Both the position numbers and the translations under genes were made by a program. 64,000 bases of DNA from a phage, in assembly GCA_036253495.1 (NCBI GenBank), contig GCA_036253495.1_4125.1; one strand, 5' to 3'. The notes beneath the pieces were generated by a model. It did not search any database. It was not told the DNA's origin and saw nothing but the letters and a program-made list of their open reading frames with translations. Positions 22,928-56,063 of the stretch are shown here, piece after piece. The stretch's first letter is position 1. Each line of letters begins with the position of its first letter.

Positions 22928-22965
22928 AATAAATAGTTACCTATAGATTAATCTAAGGAGTAACT

Positions 22966-23316
22966 ATGTTTAAAAGTAATCTTAAAGTAGAATTAATTAA
23001 TAACGAAGGTCAACGTTGGAAAGTTCTAGAAGATCTAGAATACGAGTATAACGGTATTAAAATTGTTGTTCCCGCAGGTTTCAAAACTGATTTTGCAAGC
23101 GTCCCACGTATTCGTGGTATATTTGAACTAGTCGGTAATATGGGTCACGCCGCAGCAACAATACATGACTACTTGTATAGTACTGGTATGCTATCCCGTA
23201 AAGATAGTGATAAGGTGCTACTACAGGCTCTACGTGCTACTGAAGTTGGTAAGCCACGTAGTATGATTATGTATGCTGGTGTTCGTGTATTCGGTTGGTT
23301 GTTTTACAAAAAATAA
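22966..23316 (+). CDS. hypothetical protein, DUF1353-like
   Basis: AAGGAG RBS; GFKTDFASVPR...IHDYLY pattern. Confidence 0.5.
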   Translation: MFKSNLKVELINNEGQRWKVLEDLEYEYNGIKIVVPAGFKTDFASVPRIRGIFELVGNMGHAAATIHDYLYSTGMLSRKDSDKVLLQALRATEVGKPRSMIMYAGVRVFGWLFYKK

Positions 23317-26025: not shown

Positions 26026-27714
<1,689 letters not shown>

Positions 27715-27717
27715 TTC

Positions 27718-27873
<156 letters not shown>

Positions 27874-27901
27874 CAAAACGAAATGATAATAGGAAATTAA
27901 A

Positions 27902-28087
27902 ATGCAACTTTTAATTCTTTCAATATTGTATATTATTATAATGGTTCCTATATCAATACGTTTAATTATACTTGAACGATTTTTATCGAAACATGGAAAT
28001 AGATCTATGATATTTGTACCAATCGGGCTTATATTGTTTGGTATATTTGCATTTATAATGGGAATTAACGCTACATTCATTTCATAG
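27902..28087 (+). CDS. small membrane protein
   Basis: ORF with two hydrophobic helices. Confidence 0.45.
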   Translation: MQLLILSILYIIIMVPISIRLIILERFLSKHGNRSMIFVPIGLILFGIFAFIMGINATFIS

Positions 28088-28096
28088 GAAACAAAT

Positions 28097-28578
<482 letters not shown>

Positions 28579-28585
28579 AAGAACG

Positions 28586-28618
<33 letters not shown>

Positions 28619-28619
28619 C

Positions 28620-28675
<56 letters not shown>

Positions 28676-28676
28676 T

Positions 28677-28807
<131 letters not shown>

Positions 28808-28808
28808 A

Positions 28809-28883
<75 letters not shown>

Positions 28884-28926
28884 GGTTCAAGAAGAAAACT
28901 GGGGTTTTTAACCTAACGAGGTCAAT

Positions 28927-29069
<143 letters not shown>

Positions 29070-29070
29070 A

Positions 29071-29201
<131 letters not shown>

Positions 29202-34484: not shown

Positions 34485-34826
34485 ATGGATTTAAGCTCAA
34501 CAATTAATTTTTTGAGTGATAATTACGAAAAGGTCATATCAAGGGGTGGTATTATTATCCACCCTGTAACAAATGAAATGTTCATGGTTCGCTTTGATGC
34601 AAATTCATATGACCAAGTACTTGTAATATCACAATTTATCGATTATAATGAAGTTGTTCAATTTTGCTGTACTGAATTCGGAATCTATCTTAAAGATGCG
34701 GAAACTAATGAGATTGGTCATTACTTATATCAAACTCTGATGGTTACTCTAGATTTTGGACTTACTTTCGAAAATCTGGTACAATGTCACTATATGTTTA
34801 AAAACTTTCCCGCGTCTGGGAATTAA
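34485..34826 (+). CDS. FQ-motif paralog family protein (divergent)
   Basis: GAGG RBS; C-terminal HYLYQTLMVTLDFGLTFENL module. Confidence 0.5.
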   Translation: MDLSSTINFLSDNYEKVISRGGIIIHPVTNEMFMVRFDANSYDQVLVISQFIDYNEVVQFCCTEFGIYLKDAETNEIGHYLYQTLMVTLDFGLTFENLVQCHYMFKNFPASGN

Positions 34827-34836
34827 TGGAGTTCAA

Positions 34837-35679
34837 ATGTCAAACATTATCGTATTCAAAACTGTATCATTCAATAAAGATCTTTATTCTCATTCTTATG
34901 TGTCTTCCAATAATCTCATCATTGAGTTGACAAATGGGGCAACGTTGGCGGTAGAATTCGATTCTAGTCTTGAATCTAACGCTGCACTAAAAGAACTAGC
35001 AATGGTATTAAATGGTGAACCAGTAAACAAATCCAAACCAACTGATGGGTTGGATATGTTGGTCAATAAGATCCTAAATGGCAAATCTTCTGAAATTGTT
35101 GAACTTCTTAAAAATTGTACTGATAAAATCACTGAAACTGTTAGTACTGCAAAATCTAAGGCTGAAGATAAGCTTTATGAAGAAGCATTTAAAGTCGTGG
35201 GGGCCGCAGCAGAATATAAGTTAAATGGTATGATTAATAATCTTGACCAAGTGCTGTCTCATATGTTCACAAAAGAATATGAAACTGAAGAACCTGAATC
35301 CCAAGAACAACCTTCCAAAAAAGAAGATGTAAAATCTAAAGTGAAATCCGCATTTACTGGTGCTAAAAAGAAATTTGGTCTATCTGAAGATATCTTTGGA
35401 TATTCTGATACCACAGCACAAACCGACGATGATTCACAGTCAGATGATATTCTGATTGGTGATATGCTTGATCGTCAGTTGCGTGCTGAAATTTCAGCAT
35501 TCGTTGACAGTGTTGTTAGTTCTGAACGTGCACAAGATATGTTCGAAAGTATCAGTAAGAATTTTGGTGAAGAAGAATCGAAAGCTGCTATTGATGGATT
35601 TAAAAATCTAATTTATTCCGTTGCAGTGCAGCACCAAGATAAAACATTAGAATATGTGATTCGCAATTACTTTATGTAA
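34837..35679 (+). CDS. hypothetical acidic protein
   Basis: GGAGT RBS then ATG 34837; ends at bidirectional terminator. Confidence 0.55.
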   Translation: MSNIIVFKTVSFNKDLYSHSYVSSNNLIIELTNGATLAVEFDSSLESNAALKELAMVLNGEPVNKSKPTDGLDMLVNKILNGKSSEIVELLKNCTDKITETVSTAKSKAEDKLYEEAFKVVGAAAEYKLNGMINNLDQVLSHMFTKEYETEEPESQEQPSKKEDVKSKVKSAFTGAKKKFGLSEDIFGYSDTTAQTDDDSQSDDILIGDMLDRQLRAEISAFVDSVVSSERAQDMFESISKNFGEEESKAAIDGFKNLIYSVAVQHQDKTLEYVIRNYFM

Positions 35680-35686
35680 TGAGAAC

Positions 35687-35715
35687 GAAAAAGCCTCCAT
35701 ATGGAGGCTTTTTTT
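35687..35715. terminator. bidirectional intrinsic terminator between convergent genes
   Basis: Hairpin AGCCTCCAT / ATGGAGGCT flanked by A5 upstream and T6-7 downstream. Confidence 0.75.
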
Positions 35716-36871
35716 ATTGTTTGTCATAACCAATCACTACAATCTTAGCATCAAATGCTTCGGCAGAAGTAATTGTAACATTCTCATCATCATCAAGCTG
35801 AATTTCACATTGAACTGCATCATTGTTATTATCATATACTTGAACAAAAACAAATTCTTTTAAGTGTCCAGTACTGGATATATTAATTTCATACATTTCA
35901 CCATTGCGTGTCCATTCAGAAGAAGAGACATTTTGTACATATGGAGATGTTTGCAATGTACTACCCAATATACTTAGTTTTATAGGTGTATTATCATATA
36001 TTGTTACTGTAATATCACCAGTGGAGCTAACATTAATGCCAGCAGATACCAAATTATTATGATTATCATATACCTGAATAGCTAAGTTATTACCACGCCC
36101 ATGTACATCACCAGGGATTCTTGCACTATACACATCACCAGGCCCAGTACTGAATGTAGTTACTGATACAGTAGTGGTAAAGCCGTCATCATCACCAACA
36201 TCTAATATATTAAAATTAACGCTTTTTGTATTATAAAAATCAGACGTAAGAGTTATAGTTGCAGTTCCGGTTGACATAATTTCCGGTACTGTTATAATGA
36301 ATTCATCATTGACTATTGTACTCGTTGAATACTCGGACCCATCTGAAAATTTTACAGTAATTGTCATTCCTGTTGTGTTGATGGTTTGTCCAGCATTGAA
36401 CAGTTTACCCGATATTTCAGTATCCCCAACATGAACTGGATTAACTAAAATATTATCTATATCACGATCAATAATTGAACAAGTTGGTGTGTACATATCA
36501 AAAGTAACATCGGAGTTTCCAAATATCGTTTTGTGTAATTGGAATTTAGTTACAAACCCTGTTGGATCTGTAGGTTTCAATTGATTAGTGTATCCACGAA
36601 CAAAGAAAGTATTCTTTGCAATAACATCCAATAATTCATCATCGGATTTTTTATAGTTAAGTAAATTTCCTACCTTATCATAAGAAGTAATTTGTACGCG
36701 TCTATATATTTTGTTTGTTACAGGATCTATAATATCAAATAGTTTATAACTACGCTGTCTGTAAATTCTTATATTTTTTAATTTGGTTCCATCGATTAGT
36801 AAAGCACCATCCACGATATAACCACATTCACCGAACTTGTATTCTCCGGCATCAGCTATGGTTCTAGACAT
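35714..36871 (-). CDS. Ig-like repeat protein (possible capsid-decoration or adhesin-type)
   Basis: Only long minus-strand ORF; GAGGGG RBS; repeated V/T-rich units (VQVYDNNND, IQVYDNHNN, TVTIYDNT). Confidence 0.6.
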   Translation of the reverse strand: MSRTIADAGEYKFGECGYIVDGALLIDGTKLKNIRIYRQRSYKLFDIIDPVTNKIYRRVQITSYDKVGNLLNYKKSDDELLDVIAKNTFFVRGYTNQLKPTDPTGFVTKFQLHKTIFGNSDVTFDMYTPTCSIIDRDIDNILVNPVHVGDTEISGKLFNAGQTINTTGMTITVKFSDGSEYSTSTIVNDEFIITVPEIMSTGTATITLTSDFYNTKSVNFNILDVGDDDGFTTTVSVTTFSTGPGDVYSARIPGDVHGRGNNLAIQVYDNHNNLVSAGINVSSTGDITVTIYDNTPIKLSILGSTLQTSPYVQNVSSSEWTRNGEMYEINISSTGHLKEFVFVQVYDNNNDAVQCEIQLDDDENVTITSAEAFDAKIVVIGYDKQ

Positions 36872-36936
36872 AAAACAAACCCCTCATTGTTGAAATGCTT
36901 ATAAAATATTTATGATAAGGAGGGTGAAAATCGGCC

Positions 36937-36964
36937 TTGACAGACCTGTATTTTTGAGTATAAT
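36937..36964 (+). promoter_or_regulatory. sigma70-type promoter (TTGACA-16-TATAAT)
   Basis: TTGACA 36937-36942, TATAAT 36959-36964. Confidence 0.6.
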
Positions 36965-42024: not shown

Positions 42025-42987
42025 GTGAAGAAACTAGACTTAAACGCAATTTCCGAAGAAGTACTGGATGAATGTTTTGCGAATGAAGAAGTCAATCCAT
42101 TGGAAGCAATTGAACCATCAGAAGTTATTGAAGATGATATTCCACATAAAGTTCGTAGTAAAAGTAACATTAGTCTCAAGCGTCCAGTAGGTGTGACTAA
42201 TGAATCCATCATCGAAGAGATTCGTGCTGGAATTAATGTAAAAAAGAACACTGACCTATTACTTCGTTATAACTATGGTATGATCGTTGATGTTGCTTCA
42301 AAGTGTACATGTTATATTCCGTTTGAAGATAAAATTGCATATGGTGTAGAAGGTTTTATGCGAGCACTTAAAACCTTTGATCTTAGTAAGAATGTCAAAT
42401 TCATTACATATGCAACAACGTCCGTTTATATGACTATGTATAATGAAAGTTCAGATGCAAATTACATGGTGTACTTACCACGTTATATGAGCGTTCATAA
42501 CATCCAAGTACGTCGATTTAATGAATCATATCAACGTGAACACGGTAAGCGACCTACACCAGAATTAATCTCTGAGAGTACTGGTATCGAGCTTCAGCAC
42601 GTTAAGAACTGTTTGTTATACCAGAATGCATATACGACTCTTGATGCACAACTGGGTTCAGATTCAGACGGAACCCTTGGGGATATTCTGAGTTCATCTG
42701 CTCGTGATTATAACCTTAATGTTGATAGCATTTGTAATCCATTACGTTATGCAATCACAGAAATCATTGACGAATTGAGTACTAAAGAACGAGAAATTAT
42801 CATGCGTGTTCATGGTCTGGGGGATTACAAAGCAGAAACCCTTCGTGAAATTTCTGATAATGGATATGTTGATGATAAAGGAAACATTGTTAAGTCCCGT
42901 TCATCTGTGCACCGAAAATATAGTGAAGCTATTCAAAAGCTTAAAAAAATAGTACTTGAAAAAGGGTACGAATACGAAGATTTCTAA
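42025..42987 (+). CDS. sigma-70 family RNA polymerase sigma factor-like protein
   Basis: AGGAGA RBS, GTG start; region-2-like LLLRYNYGMIVDVASK...FMRALKTFDLSKNVKFITYATTSVYMT; region-4-like TKEREIIMRVHGLGD...ETLREIS...KYSEAIQKLKK. Confidence 0.7.
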   Translation: MKKLDLNAISEEVLDECFANEEVNPLEAIEPSEVIEDDIPHKVRSKSNISLKRPVGVTNESIIEEIRAGINVKKNTDLLLRYNYGMIVDVASKCTCYIPFEDKIAYGVEGFMRALKTFDLSKNVKFITYATTSVYMTMYNESSDANYMVYLPRYMSVHNIQVRRFNESYQREHGKRPTPELISESTGIELQHVKNCLLYQNAYTTLDAQLGSDSDGTLGDILSSSARDYNLNVDSICNPLRYAITEIIDELSTKEREIIMRVHGLGDYKAETLREISDNGYVDDKGNIVKSRSSVHRKYSEAIQKLKKIVLEKGYEYEDF

Positions 42988-54438: not shown

Positions 54439-54478
54439 GGGTTGACTTTTGTTGACCCTTTTTGCTATTCTATAAATA
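54439..54478 (+). promoter_or_regulatory. terminator-promoter composite cassette with downstream TATAAATA (T4 late-promoter-like)
   Basis: Hairpin GGGTTGAC-TTTT-GTTGACCC plus T5; TTGACT 54442-54447; TATAAATA 54471-54478. Confidence 0.5.
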
Positions 54479-54524
54479 TAGACATAGAGAATATATAACA
54501 TGAAATCTATGGAGAGAAATCAAA

Positions 54525-56063
54525 ATGCCAGGTAAATTCACTGACAAAAACGGCGGCAATATGGCTGGACACTCTGATAAATGGAGTGATGAGAATCGTC
54601 GCAAAAATAGTTTCCAAGCGGGGCAAGGTTCCCGTGGCTCTCGCAACCAAGGAACGGGAGAAGCTGGGAAAGCAAACACAGTTGCATCACAGGGTCTTGA
54701 TACTTCAAACATGTCCCAGCATGAAAAATTGAAGTACTTCAATAGTCTTGGTCTTTTAAATCCGCAGCAGAAGCAACAACTTGCTGCTCTGGATAAAGCA
54801 CAAGAACAACCTAAAGCAGCACCTGAAGCACCTGCACAGCCTAAAGCGGCTAATCCGGTAAAAGAACTAAGTGATAAACTTGGGAAGATCTTTGCTAACA
54901 AACCACAACTAATTCAAGGTATCGTAAAAGCACTTCAAGCGGTTCCTAAAGAACAACTCAAGGATAAAGCACAAGCTGTTCTTGATAGTATGAAAGGGAA
55001 TACCAGTACTGAACCAACTGAAGTATTCAGTACTATCATGCGTGCACTTGAAGGTAAGCCACAGGCCGATGATGATATTGAGTTTGATGAACCTGCACAA
55101 GAAGTAGCAAATCTTGACTCAATCGTTTCTACATTTGGAAAAATTGGTGCAGAAGATAAGACTAATGCACAACAAGTTAAGAATGTACAAGCTAAGTTAC
55201 AAAATCGTCTTGAAGGTAAAGATGAAAAGATTAAACTTGCAGCAGATGCGTTGAAGAAAGCATTAGAATCATATAAACCTGGTGAGAAATCTCGCTTCAT
55301 TACTGCAATGAATGCAGTATTCGGTGCAATGAAAAAGTATGAAGCTGAACACGGTGAGAAAGTAACTCCTGATGGATATCTCCTTCGAAAAGATGAAGAA
55401 GGTGCTGTTGACCAGAAGGACGCTGAACCAGACTATGGTGATTTACCGGATACAGTTGATATGGATGGTTACATTCATCGTCCTGATATGCAAGAATTTG
55501 GTTCAGACAAAGAAGGTTTTGAACATGCTATGGCTGTGTACAAAGCATTAGTCGATAATCCACAATATGCAAATAGTTTTGTAGATGAGTTTGATAGTGC
55601 ATGGAACAACTACCAAGACAAAGGATATGATTTCCCAGCAGAAGCAGCATTCTTTGAACTAGGTAAACTTCTTGCTAAAAATGGTATTAATGTTGGTTCT
55701 AATGGTGAAGCAAACACTTCAGAAATGGACGCTGAATTGGCTAAAGATCGTGAAATGACTGATAAGTCAATTCATGAACTACAAAAGCTAATGATGTGGA
55801 TTGCTGAAATTGGTAAGAAAGCTGGTGCAGATCCTAAGAGCATTAACAGCAATATTAGTTGGATTAAACATAAGGTTGATAACAATGCCCGTAAATTACA
55901 AAAGGCATGGACCGACCTAGTGAATGGTGCAGACGATGTTGATATCGATTCACCGGAAGCATACGAGTACGCATTGAACACACTTGATAACTCTTTCCAG
56001 GATTACGAAAATGGTAACGTAACTGATTGGGAAAAGGATATCATGCATAAGTACGGTAAATGA
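54525..56063 (+). CDS. Ala/Lys/Gln-rich low-complexity protein (possible virion internal protein)
   Basis: 512-aa ORF, GC-richer codon usage than neighbours; flanked by strong terminator-promoter cassettes. Confidence 0.6.
   Translation: MPGKFTDKNGGNMAGHSDKWSDENRRKNSFQAGQGSRGSRNQGTGEAGKANTVASQGLDTSNMSQHEKLKYFNSLGLLNPQQKQQLAALDKAQEQPKAAPEAPAQPKAANPVKELSDKLGKIFANKPQLIQGIVKALQAVPKEQLKDKAQAVLDSMKGNTSTEPTEVFSTIMRALEGKPQADDDIEFDEPAQEVANLDSIVSTFGKIGAEDKTNAQQVKNVQAKLQNRLEGKDEKIKLAADALKKALESYKPGEKSRFITAMNAVFGAMKKYEAEHGEKVTPDGYLLRKDEEGAVDQKDAEPDYGDLPDTVDMDGYIHRPDMQEFGSDKEGFEHAMAVYKALVDNPQYANSFVDEFDSAWNNYQDKGYDFPAEAAFFELGKLLAKNGINVGSNGEANTSEMDAELAKDREMTDKSIHELQKLMMWIAEIGKKAGADPKSINSNISWIKHKVDNNARKLQKAWTDLVNGADDVDIDSPEAYEYALNTLDNSFQDYENGNVTDWEKDIMHKYGK

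Follow-up and report, generated by a model that had tools for sequence, protein, structure and literature searches.

The window is a 64,000-nucleotide stretch of a phage contig. Over the 3.5 kb that were tested, it shares 99.7% identity with Escherichia phage A4, a 355-kb Asteriusvirus with E. coli LF82 as its host (ON286972). From the left end of the window to position 34500, the coordinate offset between the two shifts by about 1.3 kb, which indicates that the window carries an indel relative to A4. Among the minus-strand open reading frames (ORFs) of at least 100 amino acids in the 64-kb window, 35714..36871 is the only one that does not lie inside a longer plus-strand ORF, in agreement with an earlier note on this DNA that had singled it out as the lone convincing minus-strand gene. 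It begins with ATG and encodes 385 amino acids plus a stop codon. In the independent annotation of phage A4, the corresponding gene, A4_168, is likewise the single opposite-strand coding sequence of about 143 (A4_91 to A4_234); it is named "structural protein", and its product is 99.5% identical to the protein of the window. An identical protein is recorded on a 359-kb contig (P0001) filed under E. coli. The protein is rich in threonine (11.4%), valine (8.6%) and serine (7.5%), as the note had remarked, and no paralog of it was detected by tblastn within the 64-kb window, its paralogs being located elsewhere in the genome. The following elements lie in and around the gene:

35687..35714, both strands, two-way intrinsic terminator of 11-12 base pairs with a 4-nt loop, GC-rich, with a U-run on each strand
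36271..36298, plus strand, perfect sigma-70 promoter TTGACA-16-TATAAT with an extended -10 (TG), internal to the gene and in antisense orientation, at codons about 192-201
36880..36885, minus strand, ribosome-binding site GAGGGG read from the sequence, 8 nt before the ATG
36899..36914, minus strand, late-promoter-like motif cATAAATAttttataa, 35 nt upstream of the ATG
36937..36964, plus strand, divergent perfect sigma-70 promoter TTGACA-16-TATAAT, by sequence match

The ORF is a real gene. The supposition that the frame is open by chance, or that the gene has decayed, and that its orientation is meaningless, deserves practically no credence and was rejected: 385 codons are open in DNA of 34.5% G+C, the frame is conserved at full length in 61 phage records at identities down to 34%, peptides of two orthologs have been recovered, the fold is predicted with confidence, and the orientation, the promoter and the terminator are each conserved, with no point found in favour of chance. 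The equivalent ribosome-binding sites of the orthologs are GGAGGG or GGGAG.

By its sequence, the 385-aa protein is clearly a member of PHROG 10468 ("virion structural protein"), the profile of which matches residues 1-382 at positions 1-383 of 384 (hmmscan, E = 5.4e-125). With tblastn, 61 records were matched at 80% coverage or more, 60 other jumbo-phage records being 33-53% identical; the hosts of the homologs are Escherichia, Salmonella, Erwinia, Yersinia, Cronobacter, Pectobacterium, Serratia, Klebsiella and Xanthomonas. Orthologs include A4_168, 121Q gp155 (annotated "structural protein, Ig-domain"), phAPEC6 gp077, CBB_496, GAP32_475 and fHe-Yen9-04 g482c (annotated as a possible surface protein with a cell adhesion domain). 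In comparison with the other members of this Rak2-like family, homology is full-length, and length, position, late motif and placement of the terminator are the same, with no substantive difference; the A4 sub-lineage alone has a perfect antisense sigma-70 promoter within the gene.

Two of the orthologs have been detected by mass spectrometry (MS) in purified virions, CBB_496 by 4 peptides with 17.5% coverage (PMC5259590) and phAPEC6 gp077 by 10 peptides with 37.8% coverage (PMC7247149). The proposal that the gene encodes a virion protein is supported through the presence of these two orthologs in particles. Because the family annotation, the MS data for orthologs and the conserved lone orientation are on record, the core of this finding is not new: publications and databases already document the gene, the association of its product with virions and the late motif, and novelty is low.

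The symmetric terminator that the note had placed at the convergence with the upstream plus-strand gene is a hairpin with U-runs on both strands, common to the minus-strand gene and the convergent plus-strand gene 34837..35679, and its plus-strand U-run adjoins the stop codon of the minus-strand gene. On each strand it has the form of an intrinsic terminator, a stable GC-rich hairpin followed by a U-run, with folding energies of -17.7 kcal/mol (plus strand) and -16.3 kcal/mol (minus strand) and z-scores of -4.8 and -6.1 relative to 200 shuffled sequences, none of which folds as well. A GC-rich hairpin of differing sequence is found directly 3' of the stop codon in all orthologs examined (121Q, phAPEC6, Yen9-04, CBB and others), and the lone opposite-strand position in the early region is kept along with the hairpin in A4, 121Q, Yen9-04, phAPEC6, CBB and a further contig (P0002). 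The convergent neighbour, 34837..35679 on the plus strand, matches PHROG 14991 ("virion structural protein"); it lies on the early strand with no ATAAATA nearby, and its orthologs have been detected in virions by MS (phAPEC6 gp078c, 4 peptides, PMC7247149; CBB_494, 1 peptide, PMC5259590).

Sigma-70 promoters, counted as matches to at least 11 of the 12 consensus positions, number 41 in the window, 14 of them perfect; all are on the plus strand and none on the minus strand, compared with about 2.2 per strand in shuffled sequences, and the same polarity is seen in five other loci. This polarity fits the early region, which in phage CBB has been defined as CBB_390-546 (PMC5259590). The 41 near-consensus sites constitute an unusually dense array of strong early promoters. 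The region also contains a cluster of five tRNA genes at 27076..29191 on the plus strand (Gly-tcc, Ser-gct, Met-cat, Asn-gtt and Thr-tgt) and, 5 kb downstream of the inverted gene, a gene for a sigma-70 family sigma factor with regions 2, 3 and 4 (42025..42987, plus strand; PHROG 351; A4_181, 121Q gp167); a second, short sigma-like coding sequence, A4_187, is annotated in A4.

Two of the perfect sigma-70 promoters bear directly on the inverted gene. The divergent one at 36937..36964, the -35 box of which reads GTCAAG on the gene strand and is shared by all five of the phages compared, is predicted to restart plus-strand early transcription past the inverted gene. The other, at 36271..36298, points at the 5' end of the gene and at the plus-strand genes downstream; a perfect site would occur by chance in 1158 nt with a probability of about 1.5e-3, as estimated from base composition, and its position is kept in A4 and in a 79%-identical gene (L013), though spacer and flanks differ. 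This promoter may drive early antisense transcription or transcriptional interference, and in the A4 sub-lineage it may silence the gene early in infection. As a feature of the whole clade it was rejected, being present only in A4 and its relatives and absent from 121Q, phAPEC6, Yen9-04 and CBB.

The element upstream of the minus-strand gene had been taken for only a partial match to a late promoter, a reading that must be revised: CATAAATA, at 36907..36914 on the minus strand, is a full match to the proposed ATAAATA late motif of this phage group, not to the TATAAATA of T4. The extended pattern ATAAATANNNTAYAA has its sole occurrence in the window upstream of this gene. ATAAATA followed by A or T has been proposed as the late motif of CBB and GAP32, and the copy upstream of the CBB ortholog, ATAAATACTTTATA, is listed as Porf_496 in Table S7 (PMC5259590); its counterpart in the window is ATAAATATTTTATA. 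ATAAATA is located 25-35 nt upstream in all orthologs examined (A4, the P0002 contig, 121Q, phAPEC6, Yen9-04 and CBB), and the gene has what characterizes a Rak2-like late promoter, a conserved ATAAATA 25-40 nt upstream with no -35 box. The T4-type late promoter that is read by gp55 is also an A/T-rich element of the -10 type that lacks a -35 box and precedes structural genes, but the clade consensus differs from it in that the first position is C, A or G in place of T. A gp55-like sigma factor (CBB_244) has been reported for CBB, for which no homologs of gp33 or gp45 were reported (PMC5259590).

In the window as a whole, ATAAATA occurs 11 times (twice on the minus strand) against 37.8 +/- 5.5 expected, a depletion of about 3.4-fold, as would be expected if misplaced late promoters were selected against in an early region. 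Two other copies are found just upstream of an ORF, both on the plus strand and at distances of 30-46 nt, and the genes that they precede are probably further late genes among the early ones:

22966..23316, plus strand, gene of 116 aa in the DUF1353 / PHROG 1158 "tail assembly chaperone" family, ATAAATA upstream (site to gene, 22929..23316)
54525..56063, plus strand, gene of 512 aa in PHROG 20398 ("virion structural protein"), ATAAATA upstream (site to gene, 54472..56063)

In L006, a distant large phage, (A/G)TAAATA lies 33-40 nt upstream of each of the three minority-strand genes, and the bulk strand is devoid of ATAAATA; this minority-strand set includes a gene that encodes the N-terminal domain described below followed by five Big_2 domains, and that is situated among NAMPT, NUDIX, SIR2, dCMP deaminase and ClpP genes. 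The late timing that the earlier note had suggested as a possibility is well supported by this motif logic, and late expression of the minus-strand gene may be inferred. A search of the literature on Asteriusvirus and Rak2-like phages found no transcriptome that maps the transcripts of this gene. The result is a testable early/late promoter map of the region, with sigma-70 promoters confined to one strand and ATAAATA depleted except before virion-related genes.

An AlphaFold2 (AF2) model built from an alignment of 16 sequences, with a mean pLDDT of 82.4, predicts an N-terminal domain followed by three seven-stranded beta-sandwiches, each with pLDDT around 90:

36467..36871, minus strand, N-terminal domain (N-domain), aa 1-135 with a core at about 17-120, SH3-like small beta-barrel with one helix/extension
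36194..36466, minus strand, Ig-like beta-sandwich 1 (Ig1), aa 136-226, prealbumin/CarboxypepD_reg-like, AF2 strands at 140-223, pLDDT about 90
35954..36193, minus strand, Ig-like beta-sandwich 2 (Ig2), aa 227-306, from the AF2 model, containing IQVYDNHNNLV and ITVTIYDNT
35717..35953, minus strand, Ig-like beta-sandwich 3 (Ig3), aa 307-385, distal, AF2 pLDDT above 90, containing VQVYDNNNDAV

The Ig-like character that had been surmised from the sequence agrees with this prediction of three sandwiches of Ig-like form, and with the structural matches found by Foldseek in the PDB, which are tandem Ig/FN3 arrays (filamin Ig3-5, titin, Bap and the Sap S-layer protein among them). Of the three strings that had been read as repeated beta-strand units, VQVYDNNNDAV (residue 343) and IQVYDNHNNLV (residue 265) form equivalent strands of Ig3 and Ig2, which are 27% identical over 62 aa (E = 7e-7) and, on this alignment, are a true duplication. 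The third, ITVTIYDNT (residue 287), is placed elsewhere in Ig2. The window protein has no Pfam match with E below 0.01, and none to the classical phage Ig families Big_2, I-set and FN3; a search of PDB sequences with the family profile gave noise alone (E at least 0.15). PF13620 (CarboxypepD_reg) matches Ig1 in four of the 16 orthologs at residues about 148-224, one match being just at the Pfam cut-off and three below it, and residues 274-385 of the window protein have a weak match to PHROG 1162 ("tail fiber protein"). Conservation is highest in the N-domain and drops steadily to the C-terminal tip, identity across the clade being 50% for the N-domain, 36% for Ig1, 35% for Ig2 and 28% for Ig3, the least conserved.

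What is new here is the recognition of the N-domain as a portable N-terminal module that occurs in front of a variety of Ig arrays. When 1.84 billion cluster representatives were searched exhaustively with the profile, 134 matches were obtained, roughly 86 of which cover profile positions 1 to about 122 and start at residues 1-11 of the matched protein. These roughly 86 proteins range from 102 to 1859 aa, and the domain is always N-terminal in them (residues 1 to about 121), followed in the sampled examples by five to seven Big_2 domains, by Invasin_D3/Big_1, by HYDIN-type Ig domains, or by nothing. The N-domain is of the PHROG 33171 type, for which there is neither a Pfam family nor a solved structure, and comparison with solved anchor domains gave no detectable fold match.

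Every Rak2-like phage possesses a second gene with an N-domain. In CBB it is CBB_112, which consists of the N-domain plus Big_2 and has been found in virions (4 peptides, PMC5259590). In phAPEC6 it is gp347, a protein of 125 aa that consists of the N-domain alone, as judged from its homology (hhalign probability 98.8%, E = 7e-17; BLASTP identity 37%, E = 1e-16), and its coverage in the virion proteome, 75.2% with 8 peptides, is the highest in the table, next to 74.9% for the major capsid protein (PMC7247149). As gp347 has no Ig arm and is nevertheless found in virions, the N-domain evidently enters particles without one. Together with the varied arrays behind it, this suggests that the N-domain is a docking module that bears a variable Ig arm.

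The gp347 gene (L015, 3498..3875; about 94676..95017 in the A4 record) is itself a lone opposite-strand gene, in a metabolic region with Sir2, NUDIX and ClpP genes that is syntenic with the position of the N-domain plus Big_2 genes in CBB (CBB_112), L006 and L009. No ATAAATA was found within 80 nt of the start codons of phAPEC6 gp347 and P0043, which counts against the reading preferred below. In the set formed by RaK2, K64-1, XaC1 and L014 (CBB_112), several records call the N-domain plus Big_2 paralog "major tail protein" or "putative major capsid protein"; these labels are probably an annotation carry-over from Big_2 domain matches and not evidence of location.

The product of the inverted gene is fairly likely to be a late-expressed surface component of the Rak2-like jumbo phage virion. 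Early in infection, host sigma-70 RNA polymerase would read the plus strand alone from its dense consensus promoters, and the minus-strand gene, having no sigma-70 promoter, would be read later from the ATAAATA late promoter, presumably by a polymerase to which the phage's own late sigma factor, akin to T4 gp55, is bound, while the shared hairpin terminator would insulate it from the convergent early transcript. The SH3-like N-domain, about 120 aa, would then dock the protein onto the assembled particle, from which the three Ig-like domains would extend in a short arm, roughly 10-12 nm long and probably flexible, that ends in the most variable of them. The arm would most likely make weak, reversible carbohydrate contacts on cells or mucus and so help adsorption. 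Docking through the N-domain, exposure at the surface and an adhesive role are all inferred, the last from analogy with phage Ig-like decorations and from the way in which variability rises toward the tip.

Several surface features of phAPEC6 and 121Q that are visible by cryo-EM have no assigned protein: a fibre at the centre of each hexamer, an elongated second-layer capsid protein that bridges the local two-fold axes, elongated decorations, twelve at the collar and twelve more at the distal tail, and tail hairs. It is plausible that this protein and gp347 account for some of them, and proteins of the gp077 and gp347 types are offered as two candidates for the interpretation of these densities. 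No high-resolution structure of an Asteriusvirus or Rak2-like phage to which this protein has been assigned was found in the literature. A site on the capsid lattice is preferred, although this preference is weakly held: the MS coverage of gp347 leans toward a capsid site of many copies but does not prove one, because coverage is not copy number.

Decoration of the tail or neck is a rather unlikely alternative that finds a counterpart in the phAPEC6 tail map, where elongated decorations and fibres await assignment; the protein might form, for example, the base of the tail hairs or the twelve elongated proteins seen both at the collar and at the distal end of the tail, and its Ig arm would then aid contact with the host surface near the baseplate. 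The Ig2-Ig3 pair leans in this direction, for it recurs in a paralog of about 290 aa (P0037, CBB_227, 121Q gp572), likewise detected in virions, whose gene belongs to the tail-fibre module, with a tail protein gene on one side and that of the proximal subunit of the long tail fibre on the other; the weak PHROG 1162 match of residues 274-385 points the same way. However, what the two proteins have in common is the distal Ig pair and not the putative anchor, the N-terminus of the paralog being tail-fibre-like and different from the N-domain. The anchor-only gp347, moreover, equals the major capsid protein in MS coverage, suggesting many copies, and the 37.8% coverage of gp077 exceeds the 21.1% of the portal, which is present in 12 copies.

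It is considerably less probable that the protein is a structural cement or assembly component that braces the lattice of the capsid or tail and has no adhesive or host-directed role. Ig-like and prealbumin-like domains can be purely structural, and the elongated second-layer protein that bridges the two-fold axes of phAPEC6 and 121Q would be a possible place for such a component, but conservation falls steadily toward the C-terminal tip, and relatives exchange from none to many Ig domains behind one anchor. Domains appended in such variable numbers could hardly be accommodated in a lattice of fixed geometry, but they would be expected of an arm exposed to solvent.

A more far-reaching proposal, which combines these observations and is put forward tentatively as a possibility that may well prove wrong, is that the N-domain is a new portable virion-docking module of large myophages, that bare and Ig-armed anchors share sites on the capsid lattice, and that the antisense promoter of the A4 sub-lineage may in addition silence the gene early in infection. 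If it were true, each virion would carry at least two N-domain proteins (gp347 as the bare form, and this gene or CBB_112 as the Ig-armed form), the hexamer-centre or cement densities of 121Q and phAPEC6 would be identified, and evolution would tune surface display by exchanging Ig arrays behind a fixed anchor. The modest value added by the present analysis lies in the domain map and in the evidence that the first 120 residues are a reusable docking module that enters virions alone; should the docking site be confirmed, foreign domains could also be displayed on jumbo-phage particles by means of this module.

By analogy, the protein resembles T4 Hoc and T5 pb10 in function, as an anchor with Ig domains on the virion surface. 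T4 Hoc, a protein of 376 aa with a C-terminal capsid anchor, is similar in size, and the window protein is predicted to share with it three Ig-like domains, a single non-Ig attachment domain, expression from a late gene and an apparently non-essential role as a surface decoration. In contrast to Hoc, the AF2 model places the non-Ig residues first (1-135) and the Ig-like domains last (136-385). Membership in the Hoc family was rejected on account of this reversed order and the lack of sequence similarity: no Hoc family was found among the Pfam or PHROG matches of the window protein, and there was no PDB sequence match. The hexamer-centre density of 121Q and phAPEC6 is at the position of Hoc, but nothing ties that density to this protein. 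T5 pb10 has an N-terminal capsid-binding domain followed by one or more solvent-exposed C-terminal Ig-like domains, and its polarity, anchor first and Ig-like domains second, is the same as that of the window protein.

Ig-like domains of phages have been classed as Big_2, I-set and FN3 (Fraser et al. 2006, as cited in PMC5259590). Phage proteins of these classes are, like this one, beta-sandwich arrays on virion proteins, and distant relatives that share its anchor carry true Big_2 domains, whereas its own domains belong to none of the three classes, Ig1 resembling CarboxypepD_reg/prealbumin folds in some orthologs.
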